A DNA stretch of 24,000 nt from Candidatus Tisiphia endosymbiont of Melanophora roralis (GCF_964026575.1 NZ_OZ032161.1:1422721-1446720), one strand, 5' to 3'. Positions 6,197-22,374 are shown, counted from the first letter of the stretch. A program made the numbers and translations. The notes: a model not told the origin generated them from the sequence alone.

Positions 6197-7827
6197 TTAT
6201 TACAACTAATTTGGCCATGAGCTATGGTGCAAAAATATTATTTACCGACGTAAATGTTCATATCAAAAATGGTAATAGATATGGGCTTGTTGGGGCAAAT
6301 GGTGCTGGTAAATCCACGTTCTTTAAGATTTTGCTTCAAGAGGAAGAGGCTAGTATCGGAGAATTTACCTGTATCAAAAATGCACGTATAGGATGTTTAA
6401 AGCAGGATCAATTTCTTTATGAAAATACCTCAATTATTAATACCGTTATTGCCGGTAGAAGTGAATTATGGCAAGCACTGCAAGAAAAAGAAAAATTATT
6501 AGCAATTGATCAATGTGATGAGGAAATAGGTTATCGATTAGGTGAGTTGGAACAAATTATAGCTGACAATGATGGATATATATCAGAAATTTTTGCAGTT
6601 GAGTTACTGCTTGGTTTAGGAATACAAGAAAAATATCATCTTCAGCCTTTATCCGTTCTATCCGGCGGCTATAAACTTAGGGTACTCTTAGCCCAAAGTT
6701 TATTCAATAATCCTGATATATTGTTACTTGATGAGCCAACAAACCATCTTGATATAGTCTCAATTTATTGGCTAGAAAATTATCTAAAACAGAAATTCAA
6801 AGGTGCTTTGGTATTTATTTCACACGATCTTGTTTTTCTTAATAATATTTCTACACATATTCTTGATATAGATTATGGTACTATCAAGATTTATACTGGT
6901 AATTATGATATTTTTGTTCGTGATAAACAGTTGGTTACCGAACAAAAGCTTAAAGAATTTTCTCATTTAGAGAAAAAAATTGCTACTATGCAGAGTTTCG
7001 TTGACCGGTTTAGAGCGTTGGCTACTAGGGCTAGGCAAGCTGCATCACGAGAAAAACAAATAGAAAAAATGGAATTACCTGACATCCAAGAAAGTTCGCG
7101 TGTTAGTCCATATTTTAATTTTAAGCAAAAAAGACCATCTGGAAAATTAGTGTTAAAAGTTCAGGGTATTTCTAAAAGCTACGAGGATAAAAAAATATTA
7201 AATAATGTGAATTTTACTGTCTCACGTGGAGAAAAAATTATTATTATTGGTCCAAATGGTATTGGTAAATCCACTTTGCTTAAGATTCTTATTAATAAAA
7301 TTTCTGCTGATTTAGGAAGTTATGAATGGGGTTATGAAACGCAAGTTTCTTATTTTGCTCAGGATCATCATGAATTACTAAATGAAAGTATGAGTGTTAT
7401 TGATTGGTTATCCGACCAAATACCTACTGAAAGTGATAATGTGCTACGTAATGTACTAGGTCAATTATTATTCCGTAAAGATGAAGTAAGTAAGAATATT
7501 CTAAATTTAAGTGGAGGGGAAGGAGCACGTTTATTACTAGCAAAAATTATATTGGAAGAAAGTAATATATTGATATTAGATGAGCCAACTAACCACTTAG
7601 ATATTGAATCTAAGGATATGTTAAAAAAAGCTCTAATTAACTATCAAGGAACTCTAATATTAGTAACTCATGATCGAGATTTTGCTAGCAATATAGCCAC
7701 AAGGGTTATTGCTCTATCCCACCGAACTATCACTGATTTTAAAGGTAAATATCAGGAATATTTGCATAAATATGGTAATGATTATTTGGATAGTAGTTGG
7801 GTGTTGGCAAATAAGAGAGTGAAATAG
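6193..7827 (+). CDS. ABC-F family ATPase (two nucleotide-binding domains, no membrane domain)
   Basis: 544-aa ORF with two Walker A motifs ([18 protein letters not shown]), two ABC signatures ([18 protein letters not shown]) and two Walker B motifs ([22 protein letters not shown]), joined by a charged linker. Its start overlaps the tlyC stop by 4 nt (ATGA). Confidence 0.85.
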
Positions 7828-15801: not shown

Positions 15802-15889
15802 AGTTAAGTTGGAAATGTCAGCATAATTATTTAACTTACCTTACGCATAACCACCATGGTAATTTAAAAATTGCAGAATAAGTACAAGA

Positions 15890-15973
15890 GTCATTGCGAG
15901 ACCACGTAGTGGTCGTGGCAATCCACATTTATTAGATTGCTTCGTCGCTACTAAAGTAGCTCCTCGCAATGAC
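15890..15973. repeat. 84-bp palindromic element (GTCATTGCGAG ... CTCGCAATGAC type)
   Basis: Terminal arms GTCATTGCGAG / CTCGCAATGAC and inner arms GGCAATC / GATTGCTTCG. It is GC-richer than its surroundings and nested inside an outer imperfect inverted repeat (15838-15875 versus 15991-16020). Confidence 0.8.
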
Positions 15974-16027
15974 GCCGGGCTGTTTTCTCCCTTATGATTT
16001 TTAAATGCCACGCGTAAGGTGAATTAT

Positions 16028-16879
16028 TTAATTATTCAAATCTAATGCACCTAAAGCCAAGATTAAGCCAACGTAATTATTATTTTTAAACCTAGTAAGA
16101 CAATTTTGTGGGTCTGAGATTTCTAATGTTACTACCTGCCAAATCAGCATTATATAAGCACAGAGAATAGCTATATAGTTAGGTCGATGGGTTGCTATAA
16201 TGTTAGCAAATATGAATAATAATATGAAGATGGTATAGTAAACATATAAATGTAATTTATAATTTCTCTTTTCTAAAAAAAGTGGCATTGACTTGATCTT
16301 AATCTTCTTATCGTCCTTTATATCCATAAAACCATAAATAGTGTCATAACCAATAATCCAAAAACAGCAGGCAATATACATAATACCCGATTCTATTGAT
16401 ATTTTATCAATTACAGCACTACTGCCAATCAATACTCCATTAAATGTTAGTCCTAGAAATACTTGCGGAAAGTTTATCATTCTTTTCATTAGCGGATATA
16501 AAACAATCATGATAAAGCTAAGAAACCCTAGGCAAATCGCTGTTTTATTTAATGATAATAAAATTGTCAAGGAACAGACTGATAATATAGTTAGCAAAAT
16601 CATCGCTTCATTTACATTTAATGATCCATTAGCTAGTGGTCTATCCTTTGTTCTTAAAACATGCTTATCAAAATCTTTATCAAAAATATCGTTAAGAACG
16701 CAACCAGCTCCCCTAGTAATGATACTTCCGATAAAAAACAATGATAATAATTTTACTAAATTATAAATTGCAATATTGGTAAGAAGTACCCCAAAGCATG
16801 TTGAGAAAAATAGTAACAGATAGCCAGTAGGACTTTGCAGTCTCATTAATTTAAGGCTCAGAAAAAATTTATTTGGCAT
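16028..16879 (-). CDS. ubiA: 4-hydroxybenzoate polyprenyltransferase (UbiA family)
   Basis: 283-aa polytopic membrane ORF with the first Asp-rich motif NDIFDKDFDKHVLRTKDRPLANG and a second Asp-rich region (YGFMDIKDDKKIKIKS). Confidence 0.85.
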   Translation of the reverse strand: MPNKFFLSLKLMRLQSPTGYLLLFFSTCFGVLLTNIAIYNLVKLLSLFFIGSIITRGAGCVLNDIFDKDFDKHVLRTKDRPLANGSLNVNEAMILLTILSVCSLTILLSLNKTAICLGFLSFIMIVLYPLMKRMINFPQVFLGLTFNGVLIGSSAVIDKISIESGIMYIACCFWIIGYDTIYGFMDIKDDKKIKIKSMPLFLEKRNYKLHLYVYYTIFILLFIFANIIATHRPNYIAILCAYIMLIWQVVTLEISDPQNCLTRFKNNNYVGLILALGALDLNN

Positions 16880-17123
16880 TGCTATAGTTATGATATATTT
16901 TGAATTAATTTAACTAGGTCTGTGAACATTTCCATTTAATGGTCTTATCGATCGTTATTTTCGTTCTCGAATTCGTAACGGAATTTAGTACTGCTTTCGG
17001 TTCTTGCTTAGCGAAAATGCCTATAAATCTACTCAACATAGAAATATTCAAAAAATCTAATATAAAATACTTAGTGGGGTCAAATATTATGATATATTCT
17101 AACCATTAATTCGATAAATGCAC

Positions 17124-17269
17124 TAGACCTTTTGCATAATTCTACTTCTGCTGGTAATTTGTGCGTCGGGACTAGACTCGAATCCTCACGTACGTTTGAG
17201 TACGCTGCGGTTTGAGATTCCGGTCCTCCTACAAATTCCCTAGCAGAAGTGAATTCTGTAAGAGGTCTA
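17124..17269 (-). repeat. 146-bp palindromic element, RPE-1-like, copy B (inverted relative to copy A)
   Basis: It has the same length as 3309-3454 and is colinear with it after reverse complementation. Terminal TAGACC...GGTCTA inverted repeats are present. The track ORF 17080..17304 reads through it, giving ...TAAYSNVREDSS...PAEVE..., the same peptide core as the ORF across copy A. Confidence 0.85.
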
Positions 17270-17308
17270 CTTTTGAAGTGGCTGACACGAATATATTTTA
17301 ACAATCAA

Positions 17309-17358
17309 CCCCAAATTCGGGATAAGAATTAGTTAATTATTATCCCGAATTCGCGTAA
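17309..17358 (+). repeat. ~50-nt palindromic element, family P, copy 2
   Basis: CCCCAA-ATTCGGGATAAGAATT-AGTT-AATTATTATCCCGAAT-TCGCGTAA, with one arm mismatch. It ends 16 nt before the valS ATG. Confidence 0.85.
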
Positions 17359-17374
17359 CTAGGATAGTCTTATT

Positions 17375-19864
17375 ATGATAGAATTTCTAAAAAATTATAG
17401 CTTTATTGAAAGCGAAAGAAAATGGCAAAAATTTTGGCAGGAACAAAAAATTTATCTTTGGGATAAAAATGATACGAGAGAAAATAGTTTTGTAGTAGAT
17501 ACGCCACCACCAACAGTCTCAGGACATTTGCATATAGGACATGTTTACAGTTATACTCAAGCTGATTTTATTGTCCGTTTCCAACGGATGCTGGGTAAAA
17601 ATATTTTTTATCCAATCGGTTTTGATGATAATGGTTTACCTACCGAACGTTTAGTTGAAAAACAAAAACAACTCAGAGCAGCCAGTATGGCAAGAGATGA
17701 ATTTATTGAGATATGTAAGGAAGTTGTTATTTCTGAGGAAGAGAAATTCCGCTCATTATTTAATCAAATGGCTTTATCTGTTGATTGGACTTTGGAATAC
17801 CAAACAATTAATCCATTATCACAAAAAATATCACAAATGTCATTTTTAGACTTAGTCGACAAAGGCGAAATTTACCGTAATAATCAACCAATGTTGTGGG
17901 ATCCAGTTGATCAAACGGCTTTATCTCAAGCTGACATTGAAGACCAAGAAAAAACTACAATGATGAATGATATAATTTTTCATACCAGCAAGGGTGAGAA
18001 GATTATTATTGCTACCACTAGACCAGAAATGCTACCAGCTTGTGTTGCAGTATTTTACAATCCAAATGATGATAGATACCAACAACTGAAAGACCAATTT
18101 GCCATAACACCGCTATTTGATGTTAAAGTACCTATTCTAGCGGATGATTTAGTTCAAATAGATAAAGGAAGTGGACTTGTGATGTGCTGTACTTTTGGTG
18201 ACACAACCGATATAACTTGGTGGAGAACTCACAATTTACCTATGAAAATTATTATAGATAAAAAAGGTATCATAAATATCCCGACTGAATTATCAAATTC
18301 ACATCAGTTAAATGGTTTAAAAATAAAAGATGCTAGAAGTAAAATTATAGAAATCTTAAAAGAGCAAGACCTATTAGTTAGACAAATAGAAATTACTCAA
18401 ACAGTAAAATGTGCTGAACGTTCAGGCTCACCGCTAGAGATACTTACGCTACCTCAGTGGTTTGTTCGCACGATAAAACATAAAGATGTTCTAATGCAAC
18501 GTGCATGTGAGCTGAATTGGCATCCAAAAACTATGAAAATTAAGCTTGAGAACTGGATAAATAGCATATCATGGGATTGGTGTATAAGTCGTCAACGCTA
18601 TTTTGGTGTACCTTTCCCTGTTTGGTATTCTAAAAGAATTGGCGAAATAGGCAAACCCCTATTTCCAGATATCAAACAACTGCCAGTAGACCCTCTTCGA
18701 GACCTACCAATTGGCTATTCTAGAGAAGAAGTAGAACCGGATTACGATGTTATGGATACTTGGGCTACCAGTGCAGTATCACCACAATTAAGTAGTCATG
18801 GTATCTCTGAAAAGTTTAACGTAGATATCGAGCGTCATAAAAAATTATTTCCTGCTGACCTACATCCGCAAGCTCATGAAATCATTAGGACATGGGCCTT
18901 TTATACAATACTTAAAGCCCAATTACATGAGAATACCCTACCTTGGAAAAACATTATGATTAGCGGGTGGTGTCTAGCGTTTGATCGTAGCAAAATGTCA
19001 AAATCTAAAGGCAATGTTATTGTGCCACAAAAATTGCTTGAGCAATACGGTGCTGATGTAACACGTTATTGGACTTCTAAATCTAAGCTTGGGGCAGACA
19101 CTGTTTACTCTGAAGACGTAATGAAAAATGGCAAGAGGCTTGTTAATAAATTATGGAACGCTGCTAAATTTGCTACTATTCACTTCGATAAATTAGACTC
19201 ACTAGATAAAAATGCTGAAATATCTGATATAGAAAGCAAGATTTGTCATAAGTTTGACCAGTGGTTAATAGTTAAACTAGTTGAGTTAGTAAGCAAAGTT
19301 GAATCAGATATGCAAAATTATGAGTATGCCAATGCTGTGGATTTGATAGAAAAGTTTTTTTGGTCAGTATTTTGTGATAATTACCTCGAGATAACTAAAA
19401 CCCGAGCTTATAATATGGATGGTTCAGATAATAAAGGGCAGTATAGTGCCATAATAACCTTATATCATTCTATAAAAATCTTACTTAAATTATTAGCTCC
19501 TTTCCTTCCACATATAACAGAAGAAATTTGGCAAATTTTGTATAGTACAAAATCTATACATACAAGGGGCAACTGGTCTCAAATCAAAAATTTATCTTTT
19601 CCGGTAGATCAGATTCAGCCTGATAGACTTATTGAAATACTAGACTTGGTTAGGAAAGCTAAAGCAGAAAAGAATTTGTCAGTCAAAGCTGATATTGAGA
19701 TACTAGAAATTATAGGAGAAAAACTTTCTGATGACCTAATAATAGATCTCAAAAACGTTACGTCTGCTCGCACCATAGAATTTGTTGAACAATTTTCATC
19801 AACAAATCAAGTATTAAAGAATGGCGATGTTGTAATTAATGTAATATATACTCAAATGCTTTGA
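17375..19864 (+). CDS. valS: Valyl-tRNA synthetase (short form, no long C-terminal coiled coil)
   Basis: 829-aa class Ia synthetase with HIGH ([13 protein letters not shown]), KMSKS (KMSKSKGN) and a [16 protein letters not shown] block of the Val/Ile type. Its size is well below IleRS, and it lacks the LeuRS-type N-terminal motif. Confidence 0.85.
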
Positions 19865-19891
19865 AAAATTGATAAATCAATTTCTAAGTTT
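19845..19891 (+). repeat. 47-nt direct repeat, left copy (valS 3' end plus 27 nt)
   Basis: TATATACTCAAATGCTTTGAAAAATTGATAAATCAATTTCTAAGTTT. 43 of 47 positions are identical to 20533-20579. It contains the 16-bp palindrome AATTGATAAATCAATT (19867-19882). Confidence 0.9.
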
Positions 19892-19947
19892 TTAGAGTTT
19901 AACACAAATAAAATTAGTATAGTTAGCTTTTAGTGAGATTAAACAAA

Positions 19948-20499
19948 ATGACTACCATTATCTACCTAATAGGTAAACTAGGGACTGGCAAGTATACTAT
20001 AGCAAAGGAAATAGCAAAAGCTGGCTACAGCATATGTGACAACCAACATATCAATAATCCTATTTTCTCACTTCTAAATTATGATGGGTTGACTCCCATT
20101 CCAGAATTTGCTTGGGATACAATTAAACATATACGAGATGGTATTTTTAATTTTCTAAGCCAAGAAACTTATAATAACTATGTTCTTACTAATTGTCTCT
20201 ATGAGATTGATGGTGATCATAAGCTTTTTAATCAAGTACAACAGCTAGCATCGAACCGTAAGTCAACATTTATTCCTGTAAAATTATTGATTTCAGAAGA
20301 AGAAAATATTATGAGAATTCAACAACTAGATAGGCTGCTTCGTTACAAATCAATCGATATACAAGATGTTTATCCAAAATATCCTTTGATTCAAATTTCT
20401 CATCCTAATTTATTTGAGCTTGATGTTACACTCCTTCCTGCTAGTGAGGCTGCAAAGAAAATTTTGCAGCATGTTAGGTTATACGCGAATTCGGGATAA
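19948..20499 (+). CDS. Orphan P-loop NTPase, small kinase-like, with a non-canonical Walker A
   Basis: Roughly 183 aa from the ATG at 19948 (the track uses a GTG at 19933). The N-terminus is beta-strand then P-loop: TIIYLIGKLGTGKYTIAKEIA, so the GxxGxGK is followed by Y rather than S/T. The size and layout resemble small nucleotide/metabolite kinases. I cannot assign a specific family by eye. The last 6 codons and the stop lie inside palindromic element copy 3. Confidence 0.55.
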   Translation: MTTIIYLIGKLGTGKYTIAKEIAKAGYSICDNQHINNPIFSLLNYDGLTPIPEFAWDTIKHIRDGIFNFLSQETYNNYVLTNCLYEIDGDHKLFNQVQQLASNRKSTFIPVKLLISEEENIMRIQQLDRLLRYKSIDIQDVYPKYPLIQISHPNLFELDVTLLPASEAAKKILQHVRLYANSG

Positions 20500-20529
20500 G
20501 AATTAACTAATTCTTATCCCGAATTGGGG
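20482..20529 (-). repeat. ~50-nt palindromic element, family P, copy 3 (inverted relative to copies 1 and 2)
   Basis: TACGC-GAATTCGGGATAAGAATT-AACT-AATTCTTATCCCGAATT-GGGG. It overlaps the 3' end and TAA stop of the P-loop ORF and ends 3 nt before the right copy of the 47-nt direct repeat. Confidence 0.85.
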
Positions 20530-20532
20530 TGT

Positions 20533-20579
20533 TATATACTCAAATACTTTGAAGAATTGATAAATCAATTTACAAGTTT
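20533..20579 (+). repeat. 47-nt direct repeat, right copy
   Basis: TATATACTCAAATACTTTGAAGAATTGATAAATCAATTTACAAGTTT. In the valS register it still reads YTQIL-stop, against YTQML-stop in the left copy. Confidence 0.9.
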
Positions 20580-20727
20580 GGTGTGTAATATTTTAGCCTT
20601 CCCTACGATATTATATAATTTATTTTTTGCTTTTATTTATTACGATACAAAATTTTATTTGTTACAATATAAATTTTATGATAACCTAAATATCAGGAAA
20701 CTTTAAAAGGTTACGGGGGCATAGTTT

Positions 20728-22374
20728 ATGACTACAAATCAAACAGGACAAAACAAAGTTCTTTGCCTTTCAGGTGGTGGGGTAAAAGGAATAGCTGAGT
20801 TAGTTGTACTAGCGAAAATAGAAGAAATAACCCAGCAACCTATATCTAAATTATTTAATATTATTTCTGGCACTAGTGTTGGAGGATTAATTGCAGCCTT
20901 ATTAACAATTCCTAAAGAAGAAGGATCAACAGAACCTCGTTATTCAGCTAAAGAAGCTTTAGAATTATTTGAAAACACTGCTCCTGAAATCTTCCCTCAA
21001 AGCTGGTTTAACTGGGGAATAATAAAACACAAATATAGTCAAGAACCTTTGAAGAAAATGCTAGAAAAGCATTTAGGGGATAATAGATTGGATGATAGTC
21101 TATGCCGTCTTATTATACCAGTTGCTGATTTGAATGAAGGAAAGAATAGTATGAAGATTTTTGATAGTCATGATCAACATAGTCCACATGTTAGAACAAA
21201 GGACGTGCTTCTTGCAACTACAGCAGCACCAACCTATTTTAAAGCTGTTGTTAATAAAGAGGCCGTAAAAGATTATGATTATGCTGCGGGTAAGCCTTAT
21301 GCTTTTGCCGATGGTGGTCTTGGTGCTAATCGTCCAGCTGCTACAGTGCTACAGGTGCTTAAAGAAGGGCTTAGTTATCATGAACAAGCAGACATTATGG
21401 AACGCACTATGATTTGTTCTATCAATTTTGGAAAAGGTGAGCAAACAAAAGCCCAAATACCATCACCTAATTTTGATGGAGCATTAGGGTGGTTGCTTAA
21501 CGGCTTAATTGATACACTTATGAAAAACGACGAGGAAGCTGACGTAAATGAGGTTAGGTTAGATCTAACAGGTGAAGGACAAAATACAGAGATATGGCTG
21601 CCTATCCCAAAAGAATGTAAAAACTTAGACGATTCTAGCCAAAATAATATAACAAAGTTAAAGCTAGTCGCTGAGCAATATTTAGAAAATAATTCCAAGT
21701 TAGTACAAGATCTGTGTGATAGGTTAAAAGCTGATTGGAATGATAATCTTGAGCAATCTGAAATCTCAAATGCACTGGTAAGTTCTGAGGTTAATGATGA
21801 AGGGTATGAAAATGATAGCATCTCAGAATCTGATATAACTTCTACAAAACCTAGAGTCACTGCAATGATAAATACTGAAGTTAGTGATGAAGGGTATGAA
21901 AGTGATAGCAACTCAGACTATTCTGATATAGTGGTGGCTACTGCAGAACCTGAAGTCTTAAATGCAATGGTAAGTAATGAATTAGAATCTAGTAGTACTA
22001 TAGTGACTAATGGAGAAACAGATTTTGCTGTAAGTAGTGAGAAATTTACAACAACACTTCAGTGGATTAAAGAATTATATGCAAAGGATTCCAAATGTGC
22101 ATTAGAATATTTAGAATATGTTAATAATGTATCTCCTGAAGAGTTAGATCTTACTACAATTGCATCACTACCTGAAGAAGTACAGAAAACCGTTCAATGG
22201 ATTGTAGGGTTAGATACAGAAAGTCGTTCAGAGCTATTAGAAAATATTAAGTCATTAATAATTAGTACCTCTCATGATTATAAGGATAATATTTATTGTG
22301 TTCAAGAAGTGACTAAACTTGAGGGACAGGATACACTATACGAGCATGCTGACGACTTAGTTGACTGTTATTAG
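20728..22374 (+). CDS. Patatin-like phospholipase (PLA2-type Ser-Asp dyad) with a ~210-aa acidic, repeat-containing C-terminal extension
   Basis: 548-aa ORF with the oxyanion motif LSGGGVKG (aa 14-21), the nucleophile elbow GTSVG with Ser50 (20875-20877) and the catalytic Asp in ADGGLGANRP (Asp195, 21310-21312). A conserved ATTAAPTYF block lies between them. A GGGGG-containing Shine-Dalgarno sequence lies about 8 nt upstream. Confidence 0.85.
   Translation: MTTNQTGQNKVLCLSGGGVKGIAELVVLAKIEEITQQPISKLFNIISGTSVGGLIAALLTIPKEEGSTEPRYSAKEALELFENTAPEIFPQSWFNWGIIKHKYSQEPLKKMLEKHLGDNRLDDSLCRLIIPVADLNEGKNSMKIFDSHDQHSPHVRTKDVLLATTAAPTYFKAVVNKEAVKDYDYAAGKPYAFADGGLGANRPAATVLQVLKEGLSYHEQADIMERTMICSINFGKGEQTKAQIPSPNFDGALGWLLNGLIDTLMKNDEEADVNEVRLDLTGEGQNTEIWLPIPKECKNLDDSSQNNITKLKLVAEQYLENNSKLVQDLCDRLKADWNDNLEQSEISNALVSSEVNDEGYENDSISESDITSTKPRVTAMINTEVSDEGYESDSNSDYSDIVVATAEPEVLNAMVSNELESSSTIVTNGETDFAVSSEKFTTTLQWIKELYAKDSKCALEYLEYVNNVSPEELDLTTIASLPEEVQKTVQWIVGLDTESRSELLENIKSLIISTSHDYKDNIYCVQEVTKLEGQDTLYEHADDLVDCY
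21769..21990 (+). repeat. Imperfect in-frame tandem repeat (about 90-102 nt units, 2.3 copies) inside the patatin-like gene
   Basis: Units are ALVSSEVNDEGYENDSISESDITSTKPRVT / AMINTEVSDEGYESDSNSDYSDIVVATAEPEVLN / AMVSNELESS.... An identical 16-nt core, GATGAAGGGTATGAAA, sits at 21796 and 21886 (90-nt period). AATGCA(C/A)TGGTAAGT recurs at 21769 and 21961. Confidence 0.8.

Follow-up and report, generated by a model that had tools for sequence, protein, structure and literature searches.

We examined the 3' end of valS in a stretch of 24,000 nucleotides (nt) from the genome of Candidatus Tisiphia endosymbiont of Melanophora roralis (GCF_964026575.1, NZ_OZ032161.1:1422721-1446720; hereafter the window), where a gene for a P-loop kinase-like protein lies between two copies of a 47-nt direct repeat, directly upstream of a gene for a patatin-like phospholipase. 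The segment between the copies is an insertion that arose once, and we consider it probable (a probability of about 0.6) that the locus is the fixed product of one old recombination event and not a self-mobile cassette.

One insertion at the 3' end of valS

The two copies of the repeat (19845-19891 and 20533-20579; hereafter 47L and 47R) are identical at 43 of 47 positions with a spacing of 688 nt. As a first-pass annotation of this DNA had described, 47L consists of the last five valS codons, the stop codon and the next 27 nt, 47R still reads Y-T-Q-I-L-stop in the valS register, and a single gene lies between them (Table 1). An assembly artefact, which that annotation had itself raised, or a chance repeat can be dismissed, with no support found for either: the 39-nt core of the repeat has two matches in the window and in none of 100 shuffles, and both junctions recur in an independent Joint Genome Institute (JGI) metagenome contig (L002) and in the complete genomes of three other host-associated strains (L140, L146 and L148), so that the repeat is real, non-random and present in independent assemblies.

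As a comparison set we used the genomic contexts of close patatin and valS homologues. The arrangement valS-47L-kinase-47R-patatin-bolA was found in the window and in six other assemblies, namely L140 (OZ032145.1, Thecophora), L142 (JARBCI010000126.1), L145 (a short Logan contig), L146 (OZ032143.1, Ditula), in which the left copy is partly destroyed by a large miniature inverted-repeat transposable element (MITE), L148 (OZ060452.1, Nedyus) and L149. Two genomes have an empty site, which bears out the earlier description of the segment as an insertion. In L147 (OZ032158.1, Tisiphia of Dioctria rufipes) this site is pristine, with valS ending in ...IYTQML-stop and followed by one 47-mer, the patatin upstream region and the patatin start, and by nothing else; in L141 (AP029170.1, Sergentomyia) there is one 47-mer together with an unrelated dispersed MITE of 141 nt that is flanked by a 9-nt duplication, TATATACTC. 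The left and right junctions are identical in the window, L140, L142, L145, L146 and L148 (left junction AAGTTT/TTAGAG in the window, L140, L142 and L148; right junction ...GTTAGGT/TATATACTC..., common to the filled genomes), indicating that the segment was inserted once.

The nucleotides at repeat positions 40-41 are AC in the right copies and in both empty sites, and CT in the left copies wherever that part survives. As 47R has the empty-site AC and leads into the patatin upstream region just as the single 47-mer of L147 and L141 does, the right copy is the resident valS tail; the distal portion of the left copy was probably brought along by the inserted DNA. The first-pass annotation had taken the second copy for a displaced original or incoming 3' end of valS; what the repeat contains is, however, not conserved valS sequence. 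Conserved sequence of the valyl-tRNA synthetase (ValRS) stops at Y825 (codon 19847-19849), and the TQML tail and stop codon fall in 47L. Elsewhere in Rickettsiaceae, ValRS ends in ...INV(I/V)Y, followed by the stop codon or by one to five variable residues, and the TQ(M/I)L tail is confined to one Tisiphia subclade; the repeat thus holds a lineage-specific valS tail. In the more distant Tisiphia L005 (8487-8510) and L021 (8487-8500), where valS ends in ...IIY-stop, the next gene, within 10-20 nt, is hemC and not the patatin gene, so that the valS-patatin junction and its 47-mer are specific to one subclade.

The inserted foreign DNA amounts to about 594 nt, made up of a 40-nt spacer and the kinase-like gene. 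Homology to other Tisiphia kinase genes extends only from 19932 to ~20483 (blastn; alignment), and 19932 lies two bases before the stop codon of a gene for a protein of 155 amino acids (aa), the usual partner of the kinase gene elsewhere, which is absent at the valS locus. At the other end, the kinase genes of relatives finish in ...QHVKFYS-stop, ...QHVNN-stop and similar; at the valS locus the native homology halts at ...GTTAGGTTATA and the valS tail TATACTC... follows. In the genomes that lack a later palindromic element (family P, see below) the kinase open reading frame (ORF) ends in ...LYTQML-stop, i.e., in valS's own last residues. The right end of the insert is thus located inside the kinase ORF, one or two codons before the native stop, where the kinase 3' end ...GTTATA meets TATACTC... 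with TATA shared. Such a position is expected of illegitimate joining and not of a recombinase site.

Proposed origin and the points against it

The insertion took place in a Tisiphia (Torix Rickettsia) lineage in which valS ended in ...IYTQ(I/M)L-stop and the patatin gene came directly next. It added the 40-nt spacer and the kinase-like gene, without its 155-aa partner and without its own last one or two codons and stop, and left 47 nt of target (five valS codons, stop and 27 nt) on each side, so that the resident right copy lends the truncated kinase ORF the tail codons and stop of valS. The donor was probably a related chromosome that already carried the kinase gene behind valS and thus brought its own CT-variant valS tail; CT in one copy and AC in the other is what would be expected if the copies stem from two parental molecules. 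The left end would then have been integrated by homology, in valS or the 47-mer, and the right end joined illegitimately through the TATA that the 3' end of the kinase gene has in common with the resident valS tail. Such a course of events amounts to homology-facilitated illegitimate recombination or, equivalently, to Campbell-type integration of a circle closed at the microhomology. Later, in the lineage of the window and L140, an element of family P inserted at the junction of kinase gene and right repeat with duplication of GTTATA, and two lineages most likely lost the insert by ordinary recombination.

Several observations weigh against this reconstruction. The arrangement expected of a donor, in which valS is followed by a 47-mer of the CT type, the spacer and the kinase gene but by no right copy, was not found in the 12 genomic contexts, and the 40-nt spacer has no homology to kinase-gene upstream regions at other loci. 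L148 and L149 have CT in the right copy also, and the base at position 14 (G/A) often agrees between both copies of one genome; gene conversion or other exchange therefore blurs the two-parent signal, and the CT/AC difference could instead reflect two substitutions that the copies of a true target duplication acquired later. Finally, gains and losses are not rigorously separable because the last 300-700 nt of valS are mosaic in every genome pair, filled/filled pairs included. For L148, the left-type CT of the right copy suggests gene conversion between the copies. In the same genome (7480-7530), a 2-nt insertion in the left copy shifts the frame of the valS tail to ...YTPNALKN-stop.

Loss of the insert and recombination at valS

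By background similarity the genomes form three groups: L146 and L147, with L148; the window and L140; and L141 and L142. Each of the three groups has members with the insert, and two of the groups have one member without it, the empty L147 being nested between the filled L146 and L148. This distribution takes two losses or at least four gains. Most likely, the two empty-site genomes lost the insert secondarily, through deletion between the 47-nt repeats or through homologous replacement by an empty allele.

The opposite polarity, in which the empty L147 and L141 are ancestral and the insert, once arisen, spread among Tisiphia strains by homologous recombination through valS and the 47-mer/patatin flank, is unlikely but deserves to be taken seriously. 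It would fit the finding that in L142 the insert sits on ~800 nt of window-type valS 3' sequence within an L141-type backbone, that 26 substitutions separate L146 from its empty sister L147 over the 400 nt beside the repeat, against ~0.5% farther upstream, and that the empty sites and the outgroups share a haplotype of the last 90 nt of valS. However, it needs at least four transfers in place of two losses; the filled L148 has the empty-site, outgroup-like haplotype; the flank of the filled pair L146 and L148 is equally diverged, which uncouples this divergence from the presence of the insert; and the valS block of L141 is an import itself.

Homologous recombination is rampant at the valS locus. 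In valS nt 1-1700, three alleles diverged by ~10% occur among genomes that are ~98% identical in sucA; L142 valS switches at about nt 1700 from the L141-type to the window-type allele; and L141 carries a foreign ubiA-valS block (in the window, valS lies at 17375-19864 and ubiA at ~16200-16879). Two ideas were rejected in the course of this comparison. One held that the window had acquired its ubiA-valS-kinase block in one piece from a donor diverged by ~10%, the block ending on the right at the insert. This model had rested on the identity profile of the window against L141, and L141 proved to be the outlier in ubiA (89% identity to all others, whereas window ubiA is 98% identical to L146, L147 and L148). 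The other was to use divergence of the valS 3' flank as the judge between site-specific and homologous gain or loss, which failed because a filled/filled pair is equally diverged.

A true target-site duplication within a single genome is less probable still and would depart from our preferred explanation only in how the duplication arose: a linear or templated fragment made of the spacer and the truncated kinase gene would have been inserted at two nicks 47 nt apart, or by microhomology-mediated switching of the replication template, with fill-in doubling the 47 nt, and the two copies, identical at birth, would have diverged afterwards. The sharp edges of the repeat on both sides and the microhomology at the right junction are in keeping with such an event, as are CT in both copies of L148 and L149, the shared position-14 base in both copies of L142 and L148, and the missing donor arrangement in the contexts examined. 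Against it, a 47-nt stagger is unusual, and two adjacent substitutions (AC to CT) would have had to become established in the left copy ahead of the diversification of the clade, with the right copy still in exactly the empty-site state.

The insert is not a dedicated cassette

To the first-pass annotation the repeats were the attL/attR footprint of a mobile unit. Two features of integrative elements are present, namely flanking direct repeats that contain the 3' end of the target gene and an unoccupied single-copy site in relatives (L147 and L141). An element-encoded tyrosine or serine integrase is missing: that no integrase or transposase lies inside the segment was correctly annotated, none lies anywhere else in the 24-kb window, no recombinase domain was found in any ORF of the window, and the sole ORF of the insert is the one for the P-loop kinase-like protein. 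Neither are there repeated independent integrations, the junctions being identical in the six filled assemblies. The insert has no terminal inverted repeats. With no recombinase, no such repeats and a right end inside an ORF, it is not a dedicated cassette. Nor does it conform to an integron cassette, as on its 3' side a truncated ORF runs into the valS tail and the window holds no integrase.

The gene that the insert carries is found at other Tisiphia loci, where its closest homologues (82-87% protein identity) reside. These homologues lie between a cytochrome c and a glycosyltransferase gene, between dnaB and radA, beside a 120-kDa-antigen-like gene, and before xseA. Elsewhere the kinase gene is usually paired with the conserved 155-aa gene, usually 10 nt upstream, in at least three chromosomal contexts (for example L085 5523-6546, L093 5523-6519 and L143 4465-5537). 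At the other kinase loci (L085-L094, L143 and L144) homology is limited to the genes, with no flanking repeats, and around the 155-aa and kinase module at three other loci only short direct repeats at chance level were detected. A scan of a metagenome collection, which was without this organism's contig, with the 21-nt core of the repeat gave 45 single matches in unrelated contigs with at least 15 of 47 mismatches beyond the core, as expected by chance, and a search of a plasmid collection with the whole unit gave no match. The attL/attR reading thus lacks support: one integration suffices, the right end lies inside an ORF, the gene occurs elsewhere without such repeats, the 47-mer is found at no other fetched locus, and the element of family P (see below) does not belong to the unit. 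There is no indication of a new kind of mobile element.

The 47-mer contains a motif, AATTGATAAATCAATT, that had been annotated as a perfect 16-bp palindrome. Its reverse complement differs at two positions, leaving two 7-nt arms around AA (AAATTGAT-AA-ATCAATTT); extended, the motif AAAAATTGAT-AA-ATCAATTTCT has imperfect 10-nt arms around a 2-nt centre. The hairpin is weak (-4.2 to -4.8 kcal/mol, z about -1), no better than that of shuffled sequence, and the palindrome is mutated in the left copy of L142 and in the right copy of L148. In the 47-mer itself, promoter/terminator scans showed nothing significant and no terminator-like site, RNA folding showed no significant hairpin, and Rfam recognised no family, there or anywhere else in 17000-21000.

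It is highly improbable that the unit is a site-specific cassette whose recombinase is encoded elsewhere, with the 47-mer and its imperfect palindrome as an att-like site, the unit excising as a circle and re-integrating at empty 47-mers, and the empty sites as excision products. The direct repeats do restore the 3' end of the target gene, two genomes have precise empty sites, one of them nested among filled relatives, the sequence right of the repeat is undisturbed in three filled/empty comparisons, and imperfect arms around a 2-nt centre such as AAAAATTGAT-AA-ATCAATTTCT recall serine-recombinase crossover sites. However, a single integration explains all junctions, the right end cuts into the unit's own ORF with no recombinase nearby, no second 47-mer locus was seen in the fetched sequence and the metagenome core matches are chance, the kinase gene does without such repeats elsewhere, and the palindrome decays in some copies and folds no better than shuffles. 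Moreover, the DNA between direct repeats of 47 nt can be deleted precisely without an enzyme devoted to the task. Slightly more doubtful yet is the extended proposal that the 47-mer is the site of a trans-acting recombinase, the kinase unit a recombinase-less cassette that excises precisely, leaving the empty sites of L147 and L141, and can re-integrate, and the site a target for other small elements too, as the three unrelated MITEs within or beside it would suggest; such a system, if true, would be one not described for Rickettsiales.

A palindromic element nested at the right junction

The first-pass annotation had also noted a palindromic element of family P that ends just before the right copy, and had counted it as part of the inserted unit. 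The position was confirmed and further copies exist (Table 1), but the assignment to the unit was not upheld. Among the filled genomes only the window and L140 carry P at the junction of the kinase gene and 47R, as a 53-nt insertion (47 nt plus GTTATA) in comparison to L142, L145, L146 and L148; L149 lacks it as well. Family P is multi-copy, with three copies in the 24 kb, copies in L140 and related ones in L093 and L094. Because it is absent from four filled genomes and multi-copy elsewhere, P at this junction is a later, nested and separate insertion of a MITE or of an element like the Rickettsia palindromic elements (RPEs), and the kinase unit does not include it. Its hairpin is strong (-30.3 kcal/mol, z = -7.95), and its insertion rewrote the kinase C-terminus from ...TQML-stop to ...ANSG-stop (now ...LYANSG-stop). 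A search of the literature on palindromic elements in Tisiphia gave no description of family P.

A 14-nt identity between 47R and the centre of the first P copy (P1) had been taken as a hint of a link between repeat and palindrome. The identity exists; the link does not follow, because in its ancestral form the shared word has 11 nt, a length expected by chance. The match rests on a private A to G change at repeat position 22 (G in 47R of the window lineage, GAAAAATTG in every other genome) and on a P1 loop that is absent from P2 and P3.

Three unrelated elements were found within or beside the same ~50-nt valS tail/47-mer in different genomes (window 20478-20536, L141 7656-7814, L146 ~7502-7795 and L145 1-60): the 47-nt P, the 141-nt dispersed MITE, and a large MITE with terminal inverted repeats of ~55 nt and a nested RPE-like element. 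The valS tail and 47-mer may be a TA-rich insertion hotspot. Farther upstream, a short ORF between sucA and ubiA (window 15841-16011, minus strand) encodes ...LRGATLVATKQSNKCGLPRPLRGLAMT..., which resembles the peptides of classical RPEs, and L085 and L143 have comparable 'CATTGCGAG...GGCAATCC' elements on the downstream side of the kinase gene.

The kinase-like gene

The gene had been called an orphan; we found 299 homologues at E<=1e-3. The AlphaFold model of the protein (pLDDT 89, pTM 0.86) predicts a P-loop small-molecule-kinase fold, with Foldseek matches to 2rhm (a putative kinase), 3t61, 1knq and 7yq1 (probability 1.00, TM 0.61-0.69, 12-18% identity) that comprise putative, gluconate, adenosine phosphosulfate (APS) and shikimate kinases. 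Sequence-family matches (Pfam, NCBIfam) were all below the curated cut-offs, and neither the kinase nor its 155-aa partner could be assigned by searches of PADLOC, NCBIfam and Protein Data Bank (PDB) sequences, which gave no defence-system match either. The 155-aa gene has a sub-threshold NfeD-like match. Residues G12, G14, K15 and Y16 of the kinase-like protein are invariant and form G-x-G-K-Y, which does not conform to the canonical Walker A motif GxxxxGK(S/T): a Tyr is invariant throughout the family where Walker A normally has Ser or Thr. At codon 11 (19978-19980), the window copy alone has Leu in place of a nearly invariant P-loop proline (GKLGTGKY against GKPGTGKY).

Six genomes have an intact kinase ORF, and in no pair do non-synonymous changes exceed the synonymous ones, which points to purifying selection; the gene probably remains functional. 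Promoter/terminator scans revealed no terminator-like site between valS and the kinase gene, so that the two are likely co-transcribed.

Features of the locus and neighbouring genes

The features of the locus are listed in Table 1. The patatin-like phospholipase differs in length among close relatives (548, 550 or 518 aa), and at ~21700-22000 of the window, where an acidic, repeat-like portion of the C-terminal region is encoded, identity to relatives falls to 92-94%. In L147 the patatin gene is interrupted by insertion sequence (IS) elements. The distance from valS to the downstream bolA is ~4.8 kb in Candidatus Megaira (L020).

Table 1. Coordinates of the valS locus and related features in the window.
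Feature	Position	Strand	Basis or remark
Family-P copy P1	8030..8069	.	Loop carries the 14-nt match to 47R, chance level
Family-P copy upstream of valS	17313..17352	.	22 nt before valS start; present in L140, not in L141; outside the insertion
valS (valine-tRNA ligase, 829 aa)	17375..19864	+	Pfam tRNA-synt_1 and Anticodon_1; C-terminus comparison across relatives
Left repeat copy (47L)	19845..19891	+	valS codons Y-T-Q-M-L, stop, 27 nt; CT at positions 40-41
40-nt spacer, left end of insert	19892..19931	+	Conserved in all filled genomes
16 nt matching kinase upstream sequence at other Tisiphia loci	19932..19947	+	There, 155-aa gene stop plus 10-nt spacer
P-loop kinase-like gene (183 aa)	19948..20499	+	Native to ~20483; last four codons (ANSG) and stop from P
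Family-P palindromic MITE (47 nt)	20484..20530	.	GTTATA duplication at 20478-20483 and 20531-20536
Right repeat copy (47R)	20533..20579	+	YTQIL-stop in valS register plus 27 nt; AC at positions 40-41
Patatin upstream region	20580..20727	+	Directly after the single 47-mer in empty-site genomes (alignment; L147 sequence)
Patatin-like phospholipase gene, right-hand neighbour	20728..22374	+	Pfam Patatin 2e-25; synteny

Comparison with known systems

Integrative elements bounded by attL/attR (genomic islands, integrative and conjugative elements, and the amplified genetic elements of Rickettsiales) resemble the valS locus in their flanking direct repeats, one of which restores the 3' end of the target gene, and in a single-copy empty site in relatives. 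In contrast to them, the valS insert has no integrase, consists of a single gene in 0.6 kb, ends on the right within its own ORF and needs only one integration, and its target is the subclade-specific tail of a protein gene and not a tRNA gene. Integron cassettes and XerC/D pdif modules share with it a single promoterless-looking gene, short repeated bounding sites and the lack of an internal recombinase. The valS locus differs from integron cassettes in that the window shows no attC-like site, cassette array or integron integrase. Sites of pdif modules are 28 nt long with a 6-nt spacer and occur as inverted pairs, whereas the valS repeats are direct and their imperfect palindrome has a 2-nt centre.

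The encoded protein is similar to P-loop small-molecule kinases (gluconate, APS, shikimate and nucleoside monophosphate kinases; Pfam AAA_18-like) in fold, glycine-rich loop, invariant lysine and size, and differs from them in the Tyr in place of Ser/Thr and in the sub-threshold sequence matches, with the usual 155-aa partner absent at the valS locus. Family P is like RPEs and MITEs in being short, strongly palindromic, multi-copy and polymorphic for presence, with a short flanking duplication and an in-frame position at a gene end that creates a new C-terminus. Classical RPEs measure ~100-150 nt; at 47 nt, P is much shorter. In-frame insertion of an RPE in a gene is known from Torix Rickettsia (PMC5656822).

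The closest parallel to the origin that we propose, a single old recombination event, is homology-facilitated illegitimate recombination or Campbell-type integration, with which the locus shares a homologous anchor (valS or the 47-mer) at one end and a 4-nt microhomology (TATA) at the other, the gain of foreign DNA, duplication of the target at the illegitimate end, and no dedicated enzyme encoded. It differs in that the donor arrangement was not found in the 12 contexts and the mechanism is read from the junctions. Homology-facilitated illegitimate recombination has been described in Acinetobacter, Streptococcus pneumoniae and Pseudomonas stutzeri; these obligate intracellular bacteria are not known to be naturally transformable. 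The mosaicism of valS among strains that are ~98% identical elsewhere matters for single-gene typing of Torix-group Rickettsia. The valS locus reveals no new class of mobile element; it offers a well-resolved natural case of how gene content shifts in obligate intracellular symbionts without dedicated mobile machinery, in which a truncated ORF was rescued by the last codons and stop of its neighbour and a palindromic MITE later rewrote the C-terminus.

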